From assembly GCA_051453625.1 (NCBI GenBank), contig JBOZIK010000001.1, positions 21,488,386-21,552,385 of the forward strand: DNA of 64,000 nucleotides, given 5' to 3'. The translations under genes were made by a program, and so were the position numbers. Below, one piece after another: positions 13,401 to 38,978 of this stretch; the first letter of the stretch is position 1, and every line of letters begins with the position of its first letter. The notes under the pieces were generated by a model. It made no database searches. It was given only the letters and a program-made list of their open reading frames with translations, and was not told where the DNA came from. This DNA is from Welwitschia mirabilis (taxonomy: Eukaryota).

Positions 13401-15060
13401 NNNNNNNNNNNNNNNNNNNNNNNNNNNNNNNNNNNNNNNNNNNNNNNNNNNNNNNNNNNNNNNNNNNNNNNNNNNNNNNNNNNNNNNNNNNNNNNNNNNN
13501 NNNNNNNNNNNNNNNNNNNNNNNNNNNNNNNNNNNNNNNNNNNNNNNNNNNNNNNNNNNNNNNNNNNNNNNNNNNNNNNNNNNNNNNNNNNNNNNNNNNN
13601 NNNNNNNNNNNNNNNNNNNNNNNNNNNNNNNNNNNNNNNNNNNNNNNNNNNNNNNNNNNNNNNNNNNNNNNNNNNNNNNNNNNNNNNNNNNNNNNNNNNN
13701 NNNNNNNNNNNNNNNNNNNNNNNNNNNNNNNNNNNNNNNNNNNNNNNNNNNNNNNNNNNNNNNNNNNNNNNNNNNNNNNNNNNNNNNNNNNNNNNNNNNN
13801 NNNNNNNNNNNNNNNNNNNNNNNNNNNNNNNNNNNNNNNNNNNNNNNNNNNNNNNNNNNNNNNNNNNNNNNNNNNNNNNNNNNNNNNNNNNNNNNNNNNN
13901 NNNNNNNNNNNNNNNNNNNNNNNNNNNNNNNNNNNNNNNNNNNNNNNNNNNNNNNNNNNNNNNNNNNNNNNNNNNNNNNNNNNNNNNNNNNNNNNNNNNN
14001 NNNNNNNNNNNNNNNNNNNNNNNNNNNNNNNNNNNNNNNNNNNNNNNNNNNNNNNNNNNNNNNNNNNNNNNNNNNNNNNNNNNNNNNNNTATTATTTATT
14101 TTGTCTACTCCATTTTATTGCAGTGTTGATGGAGTTAAGAATTGATGTATAATACCAAATAGTTTACTAAATTCTCTGAACTTTGAATTTTTGAACTCAT
14201 TATCATTATCACTTCTTGTTATTTTAATTTTGCATTCCTGTTGGCTTTTCAACCTAATGCACAACTTAGAAAAAGCACTAGAAGCCTCATCCTTATGTGC
14301 AAGAAAGGCTACCCAAGTAAAATGTGAAAAATCATCTACAATTGTTAATAATATCTTTTATTGCCTAAACGTTTTGTAGATGAAAAACCAATAACACATA
14401 AATGTAAAAGATCTAATGGTTGTTTAGTAGTGAGAATATTTTTCTTACCAAATTTTACTTTTATTATTTTTCCTTTTTGATAAGATTCACAAATTCGATT
14501 ATCAATGCCGTTAAACTTGGAAAGTCCTCTTACTAATTCTTTTGTGGATAAGGTTTTAAGATGATCTTTGTTCACATGATCAAGCTTGCTATGCCATAGC
14601 TCTACTTCATCTAGTTTGCTAAGAAAACACTTGGTTCCATTATTAGATATATCTTGTAAGGTGGTGATGTAATAATTTTATTTCCTTACTTTAGTAAATA
14701 AGACTTTGATAGTATCTTATTCTCTTATAATACAATCATTCTTTGTAAAAGTAGTAGAAAAATTTTCATCATAGAGTTGATTCACACTTAAGAGATTATG
14801 TTGTAAACCTTTTACAAAAAATACATCTTTTACCTCAAGTAAATTATCTCCTCTAATTATGCCAATACCTTTTCTTGATGCTTCTATGTTGTATTTAAAG
14901 TTTACGACTCCCTTATCTTATTTCACTAAGGTAATGAAGCTAGATTTATCTTCAATCATATGTCTTGAGCATTTACTGTTAACATACCATGTGTGTTTCT
15001 TCACTACTTTGAATGCTATTTGATCTAAAAGTATTATCTTCAATTTAAGAATCCATATTT
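10500..15060 (-). pseudogene. pol: Decayed Copia pol of element B (protease, integrase, RT, RNase H), containing two N gaps
   Basis: WYVNSKCSRHM protease at about 14960-14995; LSTKELVRGL..ICESYQKGK..PLDLLH integrase region; ANGYNQQEGID and QIYVDDIIF RT motifs; LYRDMIDSLLYLIASR. Confidence 0.92.
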
Positions 15061-25479: not shown

Positions 25480-25665
25480 TTAATAATATACATGTAATAT
25501 TATTCATATGAGATAAATAATATAATATAATATAATAATATGCATATAATATATAATATAATATATATGTAATATTATGCATATGTATTATGTAATTTAA
25601 TAGTATGTTTTATATGTAGTATAATAATATAATACTAATAGATTATAAAACATAGTAATAATAAT
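25480..25665. repeat. AT-rich low-complexity / degenerate (ATAAT)n tract
   Basis: Runs of ataat/atata, almost devoid of G and C. Confidence 0.7.
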
Positions 25666-26974
25666 TGGACTATACCTATGTGACTTATTATATATGTTCA
25701 CGGTATTAATGTTAATCATAAGATAATTGAATAGGTTTATATTGTATATGAGAATCCTCACTATATTTTTTCACTCTTAATCATATGCTTATATTTTCCT
25801 ATAGATTTATATTACTTGCTCTTCTAATCATTGTATATATGTCTTGTGTTACGAAAGCTTTGCTACATAATCTTCAATATAAACCTTCTTTCATAAGTGA
25901 AATCACAATCAAGACCTAGACAATGGTGGATCGGTCATAAATTAGAAGGTGGACAATAGCTAGTAGTGGGTTGTCATTTGCCTAAGTAGACTGATAGTCC
26001 ACTTTGAGTGTGATAATGTTTCATATAAATCTACTTCTAAAAAAGAACTCAAGTCATATATGTGGTACTAAAAAGTGATTGCTCAAAAAAATCTTCTCTA
26101 AGATTTAGAATAAAAGGATGACCTTCCTTCAATTCCTTTTCTCAAAAGACTTATAACAATGTATTTTGAACTTTTTTGTTTGTTGTTTTTACTTTCTCCA
26201 CTAGAATTTTTTTATAATTTGTTTATACATTAGACATTACTAGTACTCGAATGACATATTATCCTCCTAACATCTTATTGTAATTTATTAAGATGAGAGT
26301 CTAATATAAAGTGTTATTTCCCAAAACTCCTATTATAATTTATTAAATTAGAACTTGCATCATCTTATATAGGCTATGAAGAATACTTTTCTTTACTAAA
26401 GCTTAAAAAAACCAAGTCATAAACTTCATAGAAGTAACCTAGATGAATAACTTGGAAAATCATTGAAAACTTAATTCTTCAAGACTTTTTTTTTAAATTA
26501 AAGTTAAAATCTATAACTTCTTCAAGACCTAAGATTATTAAAAGAGGTCCAATATAAAGGTTTGTGACTGCATTTCTAAAAGCACATAGAAAAAAAGACC
26601 ATGTTTTATGAAGTTGTAAAATCTCATTACTTGAGACATCTCTTACATAACTAATTTCAATGCCATCATAAACTAAAAAGGAAAAACATGATGGAAAATA
26701 AGATGTGCAATTTGAAAAGTATGACTTAATATTATTAAAGATCTATTAATAAACTTTCATGGACATTAGCACTCCTTACAGAAAGAGTAGGAAAGAAATC
26801 CAAATTATACAGTGATAATAATTTTGCTAAAGCATTATTATGAAATACCACTTTGAATTACCAAAAATCACATTATTTGTTAACAGAGATGATGAAAATA
26901 GAATATTTCTATTAATAATGCTATTAAAAAAAGAAAAAATAAATAATACCTCTAAACTTGAATACGTCTTAGTG

Positions 26975-27760
26975 CTATTGATCTTTGTCTTTGACTTCCA
27001 TTATTTGCAAGGACACTCTCCTATCAGAAAATTCATGATGTTTATTAATAAGCTCCATTATTTTCTCAAGATAATCATTACTAAGAAATTTGATATCATC
27101 TCCGTTCTTATCATACAAAATCCCTTTCAATAATTTAGATCTATTTCCAAGAAATGATTTGCTATTGTTTTGGCTATTTTTGAAGATGCCATCAAACTCC
27201 AACGAATCCTTAAGTTCCAAATCCAAATAGTTTCATTTGTGCTACATCTAACACAAGGCATAATTTCATCAACTCTTTGATAAAACATCCATTCAATACT
27301 AACTAAACTATGAAGCTCTTCCTTGCATCTCTTCACCTTGTAGTTCCTTTTCAAGCTATCAACTTTGTTCATACATTGCTTCATGATTTTTGTAGTTTTC
27401 GCTCATTACCATTGAATATTCACATAGCTAAGGATATCTTCCTAGTCTTTAGTTTTCAAATAACCTTTGTCATACAAACATTTTTTGCCTAGCTATTAAG
27501 CAGCTATAACAATGTCTTAGAATGATACCAATACGTAAATACAACATGAGTAAATTTGTAGGCATTGCCATGATGGCATGATCCCTTATAAAAATTTAAA
27601 TAAGAATTTCATGAATAGTTGAAGATGCAAGAATCTCTTCATTGAGCTTTCTTACTAGGATGCATGAAAGGACACTTGGTCTCATAATGGCTACATCCTC
27701 ACGCACAACACTATACCTTAAACTCATACATCTAGAACTCATCATTGTAGAGGTTAAGCT
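26975..27760 (-). pseudogene. Decayed chimeric ORF: RR-TZF CCCH zinc-finger fragment (about 27755-27520) fused to a trihelix Myb/SANT-like domain (about 27520-27255)
   Basis: Reverse-complement translation NDEF*MYEFKV*CCA*GCSHYETKCPFMHPSKKAQ*RDSCIFNYS*NSYLNFYKGSCHHGNAYKFTHVVFTYWYH, then after one frameshift KCLYDKGYLKTKD*EDILSYVNIQ..KIMKQCMNKVDSLKRNYKV..EWMFYQRVDEIM. Confidence 0.85.
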
Positions 27761-28628
27761 TAGTAAATTGGATATGGAAGATCATTCTTAAGAGTAGATC
27801 TTTTGTTTTTTTTCCTTAATTACTTTTTTCTTCAAAATGCCACTTGAAATGCCCTAGATCTTATGTCAATGCATACCCTTTCTCACCTTTCTAGCTCACT
27901 AACTTTTTTACTGATTCACATTGCCTTTGATCATTTTTAGTGTTTAATTTACCACCATTTATACTTTCCATAACGCTTTAAGATTAGCATGCATGTTAAT
28001 GCTAACATCAACGCCATTCCTTTAATGCTTGGATTTCTTTGTTATTAAACCCAATGCAGAGAATAATGTAGTGGAAAGGGTGTTACATAGGATTCATGCA
28101 AAATGTTTAGGTTATAGGGTTATAGAAAAACTTAATAGAAATTAAAATGATAACACACTTGAAATAAAGCTCAAAGAAAAATAAACCCTAAATATTATTC
28201 TAATTTTTAAATATTTTTATCAAAAAATAAAGAATGTAATAGGAACATAAAATTGAAACAAAATTTGCAGAAAGAAGAAAAACAAAAGAAATAAGTTCTG
28301 TATTTGTTTTTTTAAACCTTCTTTTAGTTGCGACCTATATAAAACTTGTTAGATCTTTAACAAAAAAGTATGAAAAATATTGTTTAGGTTATAGTGAAAA
28401 AGTAAATAAAATTCTGAAATAAACCAATTTGATTATCATTAGAAATCTACTAGTACTAACCATTAGAAAGAAAAGAAAATGAAAGAAATACCCAAAAGAA
28501 AAATGACATGTTTGGGTTTCACTGGAAGGAACTAGTACCAACTAATGAAATAACTTAAAACGAAACTAAACTAAAAATCTAGAAGAAACTAAAATTATGC
28601 TTCTTTCAAGAAGCTATTATGTCATTAT

Positions 28629-30039: not shown

Positions 30040-32550
30040 CATTTATTATGGGAAAAGTAACTAGATAATGGGTTTTATTAATTAAGTGACATGTTAATCG
30101 AATGCTTTTTCTTGTTCACAGTGACTTATATAAAACTATGCCAATTTTCACACTCCAAGTCTTTCATTACTTTATATCCTTTATTGAGATCTATTAGCGT
30201 AGGTGTACATATAAAATCCAAATCACAAACTTTATATGCTTTTAAGATATTTAAAACTAAAGTGAAAAAACAAGTCAACTATAAAATCAAAAGTTTCCAC
30301 TAAGATAATAGTAGCGAGTACACATCTAGGAATTCAACATTTAAAGACTTGCCTTGGGATACCTCAACAAAATGGAATTGTCGAATGATTTAATAACACC
30401 ATCATACATATGGTGTATTCTATGATGTATTTTAGTGGTTATAAGACTTATCTTTGGGGTGAAGCAGTAAACACAACACTACATTTCAATAATCATATTG
30501 GTTGACATACTGAAAAGGGACTATCTCTAACTAAAAATGGTATTGGTACAAGCCTAATTTATACCTTTTTTAAATTTTTATTAAAAATGCTATGTCCAAA
30601 TCCCAAGAGAATTTCATGACAAATTTGGAGCACATACTCCAATTAACATCTTTGTGTGATATCTAACCGACTAGAACGGCTATCCAGTGTATCTCCTATA
30701 GCATTATAAGATCATTATTTCTCATTATGTCATCTTCTTAGATACTTTGAATAATGATTTCCGACTTTTAAGTTTCATCCTTTCTCTAACCTAGTAACCA
30801 TGTTGGATGTTGAATGTTCTATAGTTGAGAGGGAATATGTGGTAATTAATAATACTTTAATTCCTTCTATTGGTATGTTCACTTTGTAATCTATAAAAAT
30901 TAAGCAATTTTATGCTCTTAGCATTCTTAATCATCATTATAGTAGCAATTAAATGGGTTCTCCAATTGAAGAAGCTAATGCTACCTATAAGTAACATTGA
31001 AGTATTTGGCTACAGTCTATTTTCCAACATGTTTGCGATGATGAGAATGGTAAAAGTAGAACTAAATATGGCTCACACAGATCTCATGATGATGATAATG
31101 AGCTATAGTTGACCTTTGATACTAAATCAACCTCATTTAAAAATGCCATCCAACATGATCATTAGATAAAAATCATGCAAGAATAATGCAATAGTATTAT
31201 TGAAAATGGTATATGGGAGTTAGTAGATCTTCCCCTAAGGTGCATAGCGTTACCTAACAAATGGGTTTTCCACAATGATTATAATGCAAATAATACCCTT
31301 AAGCAACATAAATCTTAGCTTCTTGTTATAAGCCTATGACAATATTAAGGACTTAATTACAATGAAGTCTTCACACTAATAACAAAATGGGCTACCATCA
31401 AAATAGTGATTGCCTTGGTAGCCCAAAGAGGATGGAAGCTTCATCAATTGAACATACAGATTTTCCTTCTCCATGGAGATCTAAAAGAAGAAATTTACAT
31501 GATACAACCAAAGGCCTTTGAAGTAGAAGGTAAAGAATATAAAGTGTGTAAATTGATTAAGTATTCATATGGCCAAGATGTAAATTCCATAGTATTCATG
31601 AAATATAATGGGCAAAAATATACATAAATAGTGGTGCATGTACATGATATACTAATAATCAGAAGTGATGAAGAAGATGTGAAAAAGATAAAAATTATTT
31701 TAAGTAAGGAATTTAAGATTTCTAATATTGGATTAACCAGATTCTACATAAGTGTGAAAATTATTCAGAAAGAAAATGGAATATTTTTAATACAAAAAAA
31801 GTACATTAGATATCTAATCTAGAGTTTGGATTAAAAAAATGCAAAAAAAGCTATAACACCTTTGGGAAAAAAATGCCAAGGCATCAACCGACAAAGACTT
31901 AAAACCTATAAATGAAACTAAAAACAAAATAATAATAGGAATCCTAATTTACATAATCAACACTAGATTAGATCTATCATATGTTATTGATGTACTATCA
32001 TGATATCTTCATGCACCCAAGGTTACTCATCTGAACATTGCAAATAGAGTACTGAGATACCTGAAAAAGATAAAAGATTTAGGTTTAACCTATAAAAGAA
32101 ACTTTCAATTAGTTCTAAAGGCACTCTCTAATTCTAATTTCGCTAAATAAACTGATACTTTATTATCAACATCAAGGTATATCATGTTCTTAGAGACTTC
32201 ATTCCTGTCTTAGCAATTAAAGCGTAAGAAAACTATAACGTAATCTTCTACTAAGGTGAAATATTTAGCTACTTCTAAGGAATGTAGAGAAATAGAATGG
32301 TTGAGAAAATTATTAGCGTTAGTGAAATTCAAATAGACTAAGATGATAGAGTTGTTCATTGATAATCAGTTACCAATTTATCTAGCAAAAGATCTAAGAC
32401 ATCATAATAAGATAAAAACACTTGTGGGATGGGGTTCATATAAGTTATTTGACCATAGAGTAAACTGCTACTATTCTTATAAAACCACTTGGTCGAGAAA
32501 AGTTCTAGCATTTTTAATCCAAAATGGAATTGATAATGAGTTGATTTAAG
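30040..32550 (+). pseudogene. pol: Decayed Copia pol (integrase, RT, RNase H) of a non-SIRE family
   Basis: LVHSDL; KSKSQTLYAFKIFKTKVKKQ..KIKSF; PQQNGIVE; IALVAQRGWKLHQLNIQ..LHGDLKEEIYMIQP; VHVHDILI; ELFIDNQLPIYLAKD. Confidence 0.9.
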
Positions 32551-33700: not shown

Positions 33701-36091
33701 GTGGAGGGACGTGTGAATTGTTGCAAAAGGAAATGTATTTTGTGATGGAGCCAAAATTAAGAGTCTTTTTAAGAAAGTATTTAATAAGAAAATTAACGTA
33801 TAGAAGAGGGGCATGATAGAGTCAACTTGTAAAATCCAAAAGTCCCATGTTCGTTGAATAATGTATTTCATTTCAAATTAGAGATAATATCACGACGCAA
33901 CCTTAACGACGCAACTCATGGTTATTGTTAGTAAATAACGGAAACATAATGGCTGTTTGTTCCGCATTGGAATAATTTTTCCGTTATTAGATTGGGGGAA
34001 TACTTTAGCAAGCTACAGGTGACAAGAAGCAGAAGAGCAGAAGAAACCAGCATTTGGAAGCAGTTCAGTAGCAGCTGCAGAAGCAGCTTCGAGTAATGGA
34101 CAAAAGTCTTTTGTGATGGACCGTCCAATTCGGATTGTTGCAGCGACAGTAAGAAAAGCTTTTTCTTTTTCCTTTTTTATAGATCGAACGAGAAATTCGT
34201 TTAAAGCTTTTAAATTCTTTGCGTTTTTCTTTGATTCGATGACAGACAGATATATGATCTGCAACTCATGTTATTAAATGATGTTTCTTCTGGTAAAAGT
34301 GCTTTCCGTTTCGCAGACGCCTTCACGCCTGAGCTTCTGCTGCGAGAGTTAACTCATTTTTAATCGTAAGCGCGCAGTTTCCTTTCATTTTATTTGTTAT
34401 TTTGTTTGCTTCCGAATGGATGACTCGTTGTTATTCTTTTAAGGATTTAGGGATAAGTATTTCTTTAAGAATTGTGAAATCGAGAACTTGGACCTTCCTT
34501 TTCAGTCTTTGCGTGGATACCGCATTATTAGGATACAAGGATTTAGCTTTTCACTGTTTTCGGTCCTTCAGTTGTCGATCGGCAACAAAATTTGAAAATT
34601 TATTGCTTCATTTGTGCTTCTTGTAATTCTTTCTTTAGCGTTCCGGACGGTGATCTTTTCGTCTTTCTGTCGATAAATTTCGTGAAATAGGACTAAAGAG
34701 AGTAAAAACCGTCTCTTTGCTAAAATTCTCACTTTTGCATAGAAGGAGCTGAATAGAAGGGCAAATTGATGATTAATTTGATCTGGATTATCGTTTTTGT
34801 AAAGAAAATGTATTTTTGTAGTTTTAGCGATAGTGCGTAGTCAGGCGCAGGTTCGATATTCAATAAAGGGAGCACGAAAAGGTGTTCTCAAGGGCAATGC
34901 ATTTTCATGGATTGATGTAGGCCACTAAAATGTAAACTGTCGGCGGGCAAATAAGAACTTTTAAACGATCCTCGTGCGAGACGGCCAGGCCACAACCTTA
35001 TGCCTTTTGGAGGAAGTTTCGGATTCAATGATAGCTCGTTACTCCGTTAATTTCTCGCGTACCTCTTTTATGCGGAGCCACAAAAGAGGATTGTGTTCTT
35101 TTTTGAGAAAACCATTAAGAATTTGGAAGGAGGGAATGCATTTTTCGCATTCCAAAGAAACCGACTGCAGCTTCCGATTTTCCAACTGCTCGGTCTTCTT
35201 TGGTTTTCTTAGTAAGCTTGACCGTTCTTTCACTTAACGCTATGTTTTTTCGCAGCTTAAGATTAGCGGAAGCTGCAAAATAAGAAAATAGATGGCTTGT
35301 AAATTACTCGTTGGAAGAATTTTCATAAAGCGTAACGTCTTACTCTGCTTCTCCTCGCAGTTTACATTAATTGCCCATCAATGAATGTAGCTGGCATGGG
35401 TCCTTGCTCGTTGCCTTGGGCAAACAAGAAAATGCTTTAGCCCCTATGCCATGTGCATGTTTCATGGAACGCAAAGCAAGAGAGTGCTTAGTATTGAGTT
35501 TTCCGTCTTTAGCACCCGATTCGGTTTTTCCCGTGAGATGACGTAAATGTGGTAGTCGTTGTGAGTTTCTGTTAATTAAGGTGAGAAATCCGTCGAGACG
35601 GAAAAGAGATGTCCTTCCCGAAGCTTTTGTTCTAAGATTTTTCCCTAATTAAATCCCTTTACTTCTAAATAGACGTTGTGGTTCCATGTTAGGGCAAGCG
35701 TCCTTGTCAGATCTCCGCTTTACGTCATCTCATTGGGCATAATTACCTGGGGTCTACCAAGGGAAAAATATAGCTGGGTCAAACTCAAAAAGGTTCGAAG
35801 CTATATCGCCTGGTGTTTCTGTCAAGTGACGTTGGTTTCTAGCTCGGCTAGGAACTTCCTCTCGACAGATTGTCGATGCAGGTTTTTGGCCTTCTCTCAT
35901 CCACTCTTTTAGCAAGATCAAATAGAACAGTAGGCTTCAGAAGCCATTCTCTCTTCAGAAGATGCGCTGGTGGCCCTAGCTAGTCTCTCTCACATTGTAA
36001 AATCTGCGAGGCTTGTTTGCCTGTGAAAATGAAGTGGATTGGTTGTTGCTTGGGTGTTCTAGCAGAGTAATGCCGGAAACCTTTTCCGGCA

Positions 36092-37278
36092 ATGACGATC
36101 GTCTTGAGCATTATGATAACATTGAGTTTGCTCAAGAAGCAATCTGTGCTTTTCTTGCTGGTGGTTTGGTGCCTCGTTTCCGGCAAGGCTTCGCAGGATG
36201 AAGAAAAGGTAGTGTTACTGAATTTCAAAAGCAGAATTATAATGGACCCGTTAAAAGTATTAGGGTCTTGGAACCCTTCCGATCCGTCTTCGTGCCACTG
36301 GGGAGGTGTTAGCTGTGACAGGGATGGCAACGTGGAGAAAGTTATTTTGCAGGGTAAAAATCTTAGCGGCATTCTTTCTTCTGACCTGAGCAAGCTGTCG
36401 CACCTTCGCACGCTTTCTCTTTCTGCAAATAATTTTAGAGGCCAAATCCCTCCACAGCTAAGCGAGATAGCTACTCTTTGGAAGCTTAATCTTAGCAACA
36501 ACGCATTTGCCGGTTCGATTCCGCCTGATTTGGGGAATTTGTCGAATCTGCGCATGCTAGATGTATCTGGTAATTTCCTCTCCGGGGCCTTACCAAACTC
36601 ACTTTTCAAGTTATGTGGCAAATTGCGCTACATTGCTTTGTCTAATAATAACTTTTCTGGCACGATTCCGCAAGAGATTGCTCAATGTGGGAGGCTTGAA
36701 GGCGTAGATTTTTCTTTAAACAATCTTGAGGGAATTTTTCCCGTACAAGTATGCAATCTTCCTTCGATATCGTATGTGTCGCTCAATCACAACAGGTTTA
36801 GTGGGAATATGCCTCCGGAGTTGTCAAGTTGCGAAAACCTACAATATTTGGATTTAGGGAGCAATCTTTTTTCTGGGAGTCTTTCTCAAGGTCTTTTAGC
36901 GTTGCCAATGCTGAAACATCTCAATATTTCCCAAAATAGGCTTTCAGGCGAGATCCCCTTTGTGGCAAAATGTGATAACGTCGAAGAAATTTACCTTGAT
37001 TCTAATAACTTAACAGGTAGTATTCCTTCAAGTATAGAATCATGTAAAAAGCTTAAGGTTCTTGATCTGGGCAGTAATGCGATCACTGGGAACATTCCTC
37101 CCGAGATAGGAAATTTGACCCAGTTATCTGCACTCAAGCTTGGCAGAAATGATATAGGTGGTACTATACCTTATGAAATAGGCAAAGTTGAGCTTCTTCA
37201 AGTTCTTGACCTTCATCAATTGCATTTGTCGGGTCTTATTCCTGAAGTGCTTTCTAATTGCAGATTCTTGATAGAACT
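36092..37278 (+). CDS. LRR receptor-like kinase, exon 1 (signal peptide, LRRNT, LRRs); LRR-VII / At1g12460-like
   Basis: Hydrophobic N-terminus, DPLKVLGSW..CHWGGVSC cap and plant-type LxxLxLSxNxxSGxIP repeats; GT donor at 37279 (GAACT|GTAAGT). Confidence 0.95.
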
Positions 37279-37510
37279 GTAAGTGAACTTTTCGTGTTGA
37301 TTCTTTATTGTTGTGTTGCTGAGACATCGTCTACTTCAATTTGTACTGTGTATTTTAATGGATCTCTCTCAGTGGCTCTTTTTATTGAATCAGTGTAATA
37401 AAAAATTTCCTTCGCAAATCCTGTTATAGATTACATGGAAATTCAGCTTTCAATACCATTTCGTTGTGGGGTCGATACATTATAGTTTTTGTTTCTGGGG
37501 TTGTTTGCAG

Positions 37511-38978
37511 TGATCTGTCCGGCAACAATCTGGAAGGAAGAATACCGGCGAAGATCTACAATCTCACATACTTAAGCCGACTGAACCTTAGAGGCAACAA
37601 CATCAATGGCAGTATTCCAACAACCATGGGAAGATTAAAATACATGAGTTATCTTGACTTGTCAAAAAATTCTCTCTCCGGAGCGATTCCTTACACATTA
37701 GGGAACATGACACGACTAAGTTATTTTAATGTTTCACTCAACAAGCTTGAAGGAGCTATACCTAACAATTCTGTAATGAACAAGTTCGGTTTTGAATCTT
37801 TTGCTGGCAATTCCGCATTGTGTGGATCTCAGGTAAACACAAGCTGCATTTCCCCCTCACCGGCTCCATCCTTCCAACAGATTAGAAGAACGAGGGTCTT
37901 GACTGTATCTGCTATAATTGCCATAATTGCAGCTGCAGTGATAGCTCTGGGAGTGGTCATAATTACTCTGATGAATGTGAGGGCTCTGCGGAGGAGGAGG
38001 ACTGAAATGCTGGTCTTTGAAAGCACGCCTCCCTCTCCAGAAACCACTTCTATTATCGGGAAACTTGTTCTTTTCAGCAAAAGCCTGCCGTCCAAGTATG
38101 AGGATTGGCTTGCAGGGAATAAAGCTTTGCAAGACAAAGAGTGCCTCGTCGGAGAAGGTGTAATTGGGACTGTGTACAAAGCTACATTCGAGGGAGGAAT
38201 AACTATTGCTGTGAAAAAACTGAATACGTTAGGGAGAATAAAAGGCCAAGAGGAATTCGAACAAGAAATTGGGCGGCTAGGAAATCTTAGGCATCCTAAT
38301 CTTGTGGCATTTCAGGGGTATTATTGGTCATCTACCACGCAGTTAATTTTGTCTGAATTTATCTCAAATGGGACCCTCTATCATCATTTACATGAAGGTC
38401 ATCCTGATCATACCCTCCTATGTTGGGCAAGGCGATTCAAAATCGCTCTTGGAACCGCCAGAGCCCTTGCTTACCTCCATCATGATTGCAAGCCACGCCT
38501 CCTGCATTTTGATATAAAATCCACAAATATTCTAATTGACGAGGATTTTGAACCAAGGCTCTCAGATTATGGGCTTGGAAAGTTGTTGCCTATGTTGAAT
38601 TCTTATATATCGAGTAGAAAGTTTCATAATTCTGTAGGATATATTGCGCCGGAGATTGCCAATCAGAGTTTGAGGCTTTCAGAAAAGTGCGACGTCTACA
38701 GTTTCGGAGTGGTGCTGCTGGAGCTTATTACAGGTAGGAGACCTGTTGAAAGTTTTAATTCAGAAGTCATTATTCTTTGCCAGCATGTAAGGTCTGCCGT
38801 GGAGCGAGGGGCAGTTGCAGCATGCATTGATCCGAAATTACATAGAATCCCTGAAAATGAGGTCATGCAGGTCTTGAAGCTTGGACTTATGTGCACTTCT
38901 GAAACACCTTCGAGGCGGCCCAGTATGGCCGAGGTCGTTCAGGTTCTGGAGTCTATCAATTTCAATTCGGAAATGTAG
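37511..38978 (+). CDS. LRR receptor-like kinase, exon 2 (last LRRs, TM, kinase); spliced CDS 2655 nt, 884 aa
   Basis: Acceptor TTTGCAG at 37510 restores the frame (FLIEL-DLSGNNL). TM VSAIIAIIAAAVIALGVVIITLM; IIGKLVLFSKSLPSKYEDW juxtamembrane motif of At1g12460-like RLKs; kinase motifs AVKKL, HFDIKSTN, DYG, GYIAPE, DVYSFG. Confidence 0.95.

Follow-up and report, generated by a model that had tools for sequence, protein, structure and literature searches.

A decayed TZF-trihelix chimera, joined codon to codon, in the genome of Welwitschia mirabilis

The available passages of PMC4468379 name the CHCH motif as the distinctive mark of the RR-TZF subfamily of plant zinc-finger proteins and give the spacing of its first finger as C-X7-8-C-X5-C-X3-H. 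For plants in general, template switching with microhomology and the formation of filler DNA are described in the accessible part of PMC8871565, and for Welwitschia a genome-wide deamination and a GC content of 29 % are reported in the accessible part of PMC8275611. A literature search for a chimera of TZF and trihelix sequences found no known example among the titles listed.

The locus described here lies in a stretch of 64,000 nucleotides of Welwitschia mirabilis DNA (contig JBOZIK010000001.1), which was analysed as a whole and is referred to as the window. The window is AT-rich draft DNA with seven N gaps and a G+C content of 29.6 % (N runs excluded). The locus is a real chimeric pseudogene, neatly joined and dead, and is a true TZF/trihelix chimera with one continuous reading on one strand; as such it belongs among the ordinary genomic fossils, set in AT-rich plant DNA full of retrotransposons. 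Both homologies have exact limits, the frame is continuous from one to the other, and the whole is decayed with a recognizable mutation bias. The minus-strand translations quoted in an earlier note on this DNA were recovered as written, at the position and on the strand given there. On that strand, 74 codons from 27743 to 27522 lead to W-Y-H, and 13 more continue the same frame; the reading then passes to a second frame at 27489-27226 and to a third, which begins at 27223 and closes with a stop at 26977-26975. The features, in minus-strand order, are as follows.

27744..28100, minus strand: upstream flank, G+C 0.33-0.34 like the relic, with no recognizable coding similarity
27522..27743, minus strand: block derived from RR-TZF, 74 codons without gaps, 5 stops in frame (PF25512, tblastn of TZF ORFs)
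27660..27707, minus strand: CHCH motif of the RR region, C-X5-H-X4-C-X3-H, read from the translation
27546..27602, minus strand: relic of the first CCCH finger, X7/X5/X3 spacing intact, Cys1 and Cys3 now Tyr
27519..27530, minus strand: junction W-Y-H-S, with TZF alignments ending at 27522 and the trihelix alignment starting at 27527
27483..27521, minus strand: first helix of the trihelix domain, 13 codons, 2 stops, in the frame of the TZF block
27487..27489, minus strand: frameshift 1, apparent 1-nt deletion in a Gly codon beside an A-run, compared with S-Y-G-E-K-C of P0060
27226..27489, minus strand: helices 2 and 3 of the trihelix domain, second frame, 88 codons, 3 stops, middle signature Trp replaced by TAG
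27224..27225, minus strand: frameshift 2, apparent 1-nt deletion in a Ser codon, from the frames of the P0060 alignment
27101..27223, minus strand: post-trihelix linker, third frame, 41 codons, 0 stops (P0060 alignment)
26975..27100, minus strand: open tail, 41 codons and a TAG stop, without detectable homology

In the RR-TZF block, the RR/CHCH region is followed by the first CCCH finger, and the block ends with W-Y-H. A reference set for it was drawn from metagenome contigs: a short conserved TZF motif was sought in them with a degenerate pattern, and the reading frame around each pattern match was translated, which gave 120 TZF ORFs, all of them single uninterrupted frames. In tblastn comparisons (E<=1e-3), 119 of these 120 ORFs aligned without gaps to 27743-27522 at 49-51 % identity over 74-75 residues, with a best E of 7.6e-20 computed for a 3-kb search space. 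The family PF25512 (zf-CCCH_AtC3H23) matched frame A at 27758-27480 with an E of 2.5e-10 and 40.3 bits, against a cut-off of 27. Together these alignments bear out the earlier note, which had described this part as an almost gapless RR-TZF match; the check that it proposed with the generic zf-CCCH family PF00642 gave no match to the relic at E<=10, and it is PF25512 that matches instead. In the CHCH motif (27707-27660) all four ligand residues and their spacing are retained, with a TGA stop inside the motif. The first finger keeps the spacing C-X7-C-X5-C-X3-H and has lost two of its three cysteines, Cys1 and Cys3, which were converted to Tyr at 27602 and 27560 by G>A changes (TGY>TAY). The frame of the block is closed by five stops in 74 codons, and a second CCCH finger is absent, none of the 119 TZF alignments extending past 27522.

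Upstream of the block, the 15 codons before D-E-F show no TZF similarity, their score being equalled or exceeded in 1234 of 2000 shuffles, and the three frames of 27744-28130, compared with 19 non-ankyrin TZF N-termini, gave scores that were reached by 263, 210 and 163 of 300 shuffles. Because the upstream sequence lacks TZF N-terminal similarity, the TZF part is an internal piece of 74 codons (222 nt), a fragment rather than a member gene of the RR-TZF family.

The second half of the locus was compared with PF13837, which gave 18.9 bits on frame B at 27492-27199, below the cut-off of 27; this score covers the one-frame part only of a domain that is split by the frameshift. A phmmer search of 1.84 billion representative proteins gave 37 matches at E<=0.001 (best E 4.6e-18), and a profile of 13 of them (alignment A1) found 49 proteins in a collection of 5.8 billion, which come from gymnosperms, ferns, one moss and one flowering plant. 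The SIP1/ASIL-like trihelix domain proposed in the earlier note is upheld by the presence of PF13837 in 36 of the 37 phmmer matches and by the names of the relatives, several of the 49 being called trihelix transcription factor ENAP1 or ENAP2 by their sources. From these source-given names, we take the relatives to be of the SIP1 type; no literature linking ENAP1, trihelix and SIP1 together was found.

The closest relative, P0060, is a transcript of Welwitschia mirabilis itself (EukProt) and is 62.5 % identical over 88 aa (27489-27226, minus strand). The linker at 27223-27101 is 64.3 % identical to residues 121-162 of P0060 over 42 aa and also has an ungapped match to P0053. The alignments of P0060 residues 32-119 and 121-162 lie in separate frames and are 2 nt apart. 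An HMM of the clade, applied to a read-through of the first two frames, matched over positions 19-117 with 91.7 bits and covered the whole domain. The first helix was tested separately because its part adds less than 1 bit to this score (91.7 versus 91.0): the 13 codons after W-Y-H reached a best local score of 22 against 16 trihelix relatives, which 4 of 2000 shuffles reach, and a score of 13 against 35 TZF segments, which 622 of 2000 shuffles reach. Similarity to the family was thus found over the whole trihelix domain by phmmer, the clade HMM and P0060. Three tryptophans, W19, W47 and W98, are invariant in alignment A1; the relic retains the first (27530-27528) and the third (27291-27289), and has TAG at 27444-27442 in place of the second, which leaves the signature incomplete.

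Beyond the linker the likeness ends. The earlier note had drawn the open reading frame down to 26975, but detectable homology stops at 27101. The tail at 27100-26978 (41 codons) resembles nothing, 724 of 1000 shuffles scoring at least as high as observed against the C-terminus of the relatives, and the clade HMM finds nothing in the tail of the third frame. Of the 13 aligned relatives (A1), 11 have a conserved C-terminal helical motif, which is missing from the tail and from everywhere else in the window; the trihelix copy is therefore truncated or rearranged at its 3' end as well. Positions 26978-27223 (minus strand) form an 82-codon stop-free stretch in an otherwise stop-ridden relic, the second half of which is without detectable homology.

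The two homologies join at W-x-H-(P), which is W-L-H-P in the TZF ORFs, E-W-H-P in the trihelix relatives and W-Y-H-S in the window. Among the 119 TZF alignments, 117 stop exactly at the His codon 27524-27522 and none is longer, and the codons after 27522, where the tandem finger would continue, fit trihelix relatives and not TZF. Because W-x-H-(P) is common to both parents, the crossover is placed inside residues that both encode. The earlier note had set the join at a Trp possibly common to both parents, which is here refined to W-x-H-(P), and had seen a trihelix domain in place of the second CCCH finger, which agrees with the end of the TZF similarity at 27522 and the trihelix sequence that follows.

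Chance adjacency of two unrelated relics, or an artefact of the assembly, is most improbable as an account of this arrangement, even in a draft window with seven N gaps: there is no spacer between the two homologies, the frame is continuous across the join, and each of seven DNA runs contains at least half of the sampled words of 26900-27900 (31-mer index); these runs belong to three studies and carry two organism labels. Since DNA runs of three studies contain the stretch, the sequence is not private to one assembly. The best-matching run may be the source sample. The support for the join consists of the assembly and the indexed 31-mers. No RNA run is listed among those that contain the stretch.

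A second coincidence is found at the other end of the TZF block. The trihelix relatives P0060, P0053, P0044 and P0003 start with M-x-S-x-D-D-E-F-R, nine residues before E-W-H-P, and so carry D-E-F-R at residues 6-9; the TZF ORFs carry D-E-F-R too, and the TZF similarity of the window starts at D-E-F-(R). By virtue of D-E-F-R and W-x-H-(P), the TZF block lies between two motifs common to both parents. The five codons upstream of D-E-F fit neither parent, at least 8 changes in 15 nt being needed against the N-terminus of the trihelix relatives (codons compared by eye), and the coincidence at D-E-F-R may only mark the start of TZF conservation.

Over its roughly 216 homologous codons the relic has 10 in-frame stops and 2 frameshifts. 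Five of the stops fall in the TZF block, two in the first-helix part and three in the second frame; the third frame is free of them. Alignment to P0060 points to two 1-nt deletions, at about 27488, beside the A-run, and at about 27225; of these the earlier note had the one near the A/T run, which stands, and its count of a single frameshift has to be raised by the second. Conserved TZF columns, by a threshold of at least 80 % among 49 distinct segments, number 52; the relic is identical at 29 of them, and the 23 differing columns amount, by the shortest path, to 30 base changes. At 56 conserved trihelix columns (15 relatives) it is identical at 35. Changes of the type G>A or C>T make up 23 of the 30 in the TZF block, 11 of 23 in the trihelix block and 34 of 53 in both together, shares that are somewhat generous since the choice of path prefers few changes and then transitions. 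In columns with a single change they account for 14 of 16 (TZF) and 9 of 19 (trihelix). The earlier remark that many differences are C>T or G>A is in keeping with these counts. In the relic the observed/expected ratio of CpG is 0.26, whereas the window's intact LRR-kinase ORFs have 0.67. Because deamination is genome-wide in Welwitschia, the bias is regarded as a property of the genome and not of the locus.

A protein with both domains was sought in several collections. None of the 37 phmmer trihelix relatives from the 1.84 billion proteins has a CCCH domain, none of the 49 profile-found trihelix relatives from the 5.8-billion collection has a CCCH family in its Pfam annotation, and none of the 120 TZF ORFs has a match to the trihelix clade HMM; the searched protein collection includes a Welwitschia transcriptome. 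Word-indexed protein searches with both decayed halves, in which longer proteins were sought, returned nothing, because the relic has too few exact words in common with intact proteins. Matches to PDB sequences were at chance level (E 0.2 for a Muscleblind CCCH, E 0.28 for a phage wedge protein) and were rejected. Some trihelix proteins in the databases (P0005, P0020, P0023, P0035) carry other domains, namely six trihelix repeats, MazG, RINGv and an amino-acid kinase, none of them CCCH; these architectures are real fusions or merged gene models. The locus does not bring to light a new protein architecture in use, and a working form of the RNA-plus-DNA-binding fusion described in the earlier note finds no support in a sequence with 10 stops, 2 frameshifts and no intact two-domain protein among the relatives examined.

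It is very unlikely that the locus is the relic of a once-functional, lineage-specific gene in which an RR/CCCH module was fused to a trihelix domain. Such a gene would suit the in-frame state of both joins, the nearly equal decay of the halves (29/52 and 35/56 conserved columns identical) and the 82-codon open stretch, a length reached by 43 of the 9761 stop-to-stop segments in the window, but it is opposed by the absence of two-domain proteins among the relatives (0/37, 0/49 and 0/120, Welwitschia transcriptome included) and by the dead state of the locus itself; moreover, since the join falls at codons common to both parents, an in-frame product would be obtained without selection. In one version, to which we likewise give very little credence, the chimera was born by templated insertion at shared codons as a working transcription factor of the gnetophyte lineage, with a trihelix DNA-binding domain to which an RNA-binding module (RR/CHCH and a single CCCH) had been added, and this locus is a dead copy of it. 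On this reading the genome may still contain paralogues that are intact or expressed.

The relic sits between decayed Ty1/copia fragments, at about 22.1-23.5 kb (minus strand; weak Retrotran_gag_2 and Pol_BBD) and at about 30585-31575 (plus strand; SH3_retrovirus and RVT_2, E 3.2e-36). Decayed Ty1/copia sequence is also found at 14345-14677 (minus strand; gag_pre-integrs, E 3.6e-15), and an AT-rich, low-complexity cluster of direct repeats (families D1 and D3) lies at 25483-25663. About 8 kb from the relic, at 36071-38978 (plus strand), an LRR receptor-like kinase is encoded in two open frames of 403 and 529 aa with LRRNT_2, many LRRs and Pkinase (E 3e-38), a G+C of 42 % and a CpG observed/expected ratio of 0.67; it has the appearance of an intact gene that one intron or a frame break interrupts. 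The G+C content is 0.32-0.34 from 27100 to about 28100 and lower on both sides, and upstream of the TZF block the raised G+C is accompanied by an excess of TpG+CpA for about 350 nt, after which G+C falls to 0.20. Because G+C is raised as far as about 28100, the former genic island reaches some 350 nt beyond the TZF block on its upstream side; 27744-28100 could represent what was once an untranslated or promoter region of one of the parents.

No second copy of the relic was found in the window, and no transposase domain was found in 22-33 kb except in the copia fragments. One inverted repeat brackets the relic (26155-26180 / 28359-28384, 81 % complementary); its interpretation as transposon ends was dropped, as its flanks are not duplicated (no target-site duplication). 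Pack-MULE, Helitron and CACTA-type elements assemble gene fragments, and the locus could in principle be the decayed copy of such an element that had joined two of them, given that the TZF part is an internal fragment without its N-terminal region and that the trihelix copy is truncated. This we hold to be unlikely, since the sole flanking inverted repeat is without duplicated flanks, the window holds no second copy, the 22-33 kb region holds no transposase domain outside the copia fragments, and captured fragments are usually not joined codon to codon at common motifs.

An origin at the RNA level is rated as similarly improbable. A LINE or LTR reverse transcriptase would have switched between a trihelix mRNA and a TZF mRNA, and the cDNA would have been inserted as a retropseudogene; chimeric pseudogenes from double template jumps are described in the accessible part of PMC2104539, and the position among decayed copia fragments and the seamless, in-frame joins at motifs common to both parents would agree with such an event. 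Retrocopies, however, usually keep their 3' end, and this copy is without the 3' third of its parent; nor was an A-rich tract seen past the stop or past the point where homology ends (minus strand, by eye), or a target-site duplication found. The intron-free state of the TZF block is uninformative on this point, because all 120 TZF ORFs are uninterrupted.

We consider it probable that the chimera arose at the DNA level by a template switch guided by microhomology and then decayed by deamination. A copy of an ENAP-like (SIP1-type) trihelix gene would have gained an in-frame, internal 222-nt RR-TZF fragment when, in the course of DNA repair or replication, the template was switched at points of microhomology, in the manner of filler DNA or templated insertions. 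About 70 codons would have been copied from a TZF gene and would have replaced about 9 codons of the trihelix copy. That the outcome is in frame would follow from the codons common to both parents, with no need for selection. The locus would have been silent afterwards or already, and deamination of methylated cytosines would then have eroded its Arg, Cys and Trp codons. We infer the switching mechanism, its operation on DNA rather than RNA and the two-sided form of the insertion; the microhomology itself is deduced from amino acids shared by the proteins of the two parent families. A two-sided templated insertion fits because the TZF block is flanked by two motifs of both parents, but the argument loses weight, as D-E-F is where TZF conservation itself begins and as neither parent is matched by the five codons before it.

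The locus offers a clean, natural instance in which two unrelated genes are joined codon to codon at residues shared by chance, and it documents the mutation bias of deamination at the level of single codons. It would be of greater significance only if intact copies exist, the combination of RR/CCCH and trihelix being present in no protein examined.

Compared with RR-TZF proteins of the AtTZF1-3 type (AtC3H23-like), the relic has the same CHCH spacing and ligands and the same first-finger spacing, at about 50 % identity over 74 gapless codons. Its local pattern is that of the non-ankyrin RR-TZF type; Arg codons near the CHCH cysteine have become stop or Cys. It differs in having neither the N-terminal region nor the second finger, which is C-X5-C-X4-C-X3-H in the TZF ORFs, in the loss of two of three finger cysteines and in its five stops.

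With the ENAP1/ENAP2-like factors of gymnosperms and ferns, of which P0060 is closest and the ENAP2 of Cryptomeria japonica (P0053) is another, it shares the whole trihelix domain and the linker, at 62-64 % identity to P0060. The first 18 residues of the ENAP-like factors are replaced or interrupted by the TZF block in the relic, which further differs from them by the TAG in place of the middle Trp, the missing C-terminal motif, five stops and two frameshifts.

In the chimeric retropseudogenes treated in the available text of PMC2104539, pieces of transcripts are fused directly and a double jump yields a three-part structure; the relic, by comparison, is without poly(A), target-site duplication, a joined retroelement part and the 3' end. 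In filler DNA from polymerase-theta end joining, as far as it is described in the accessible part of PMC8871565, a foreign stretch is copied in between two points that have a few bases in common with the recipient, and the joins are seamless; such filler is often templated from the flank, whereas here about 220 nt would have come from an unlinked gene.
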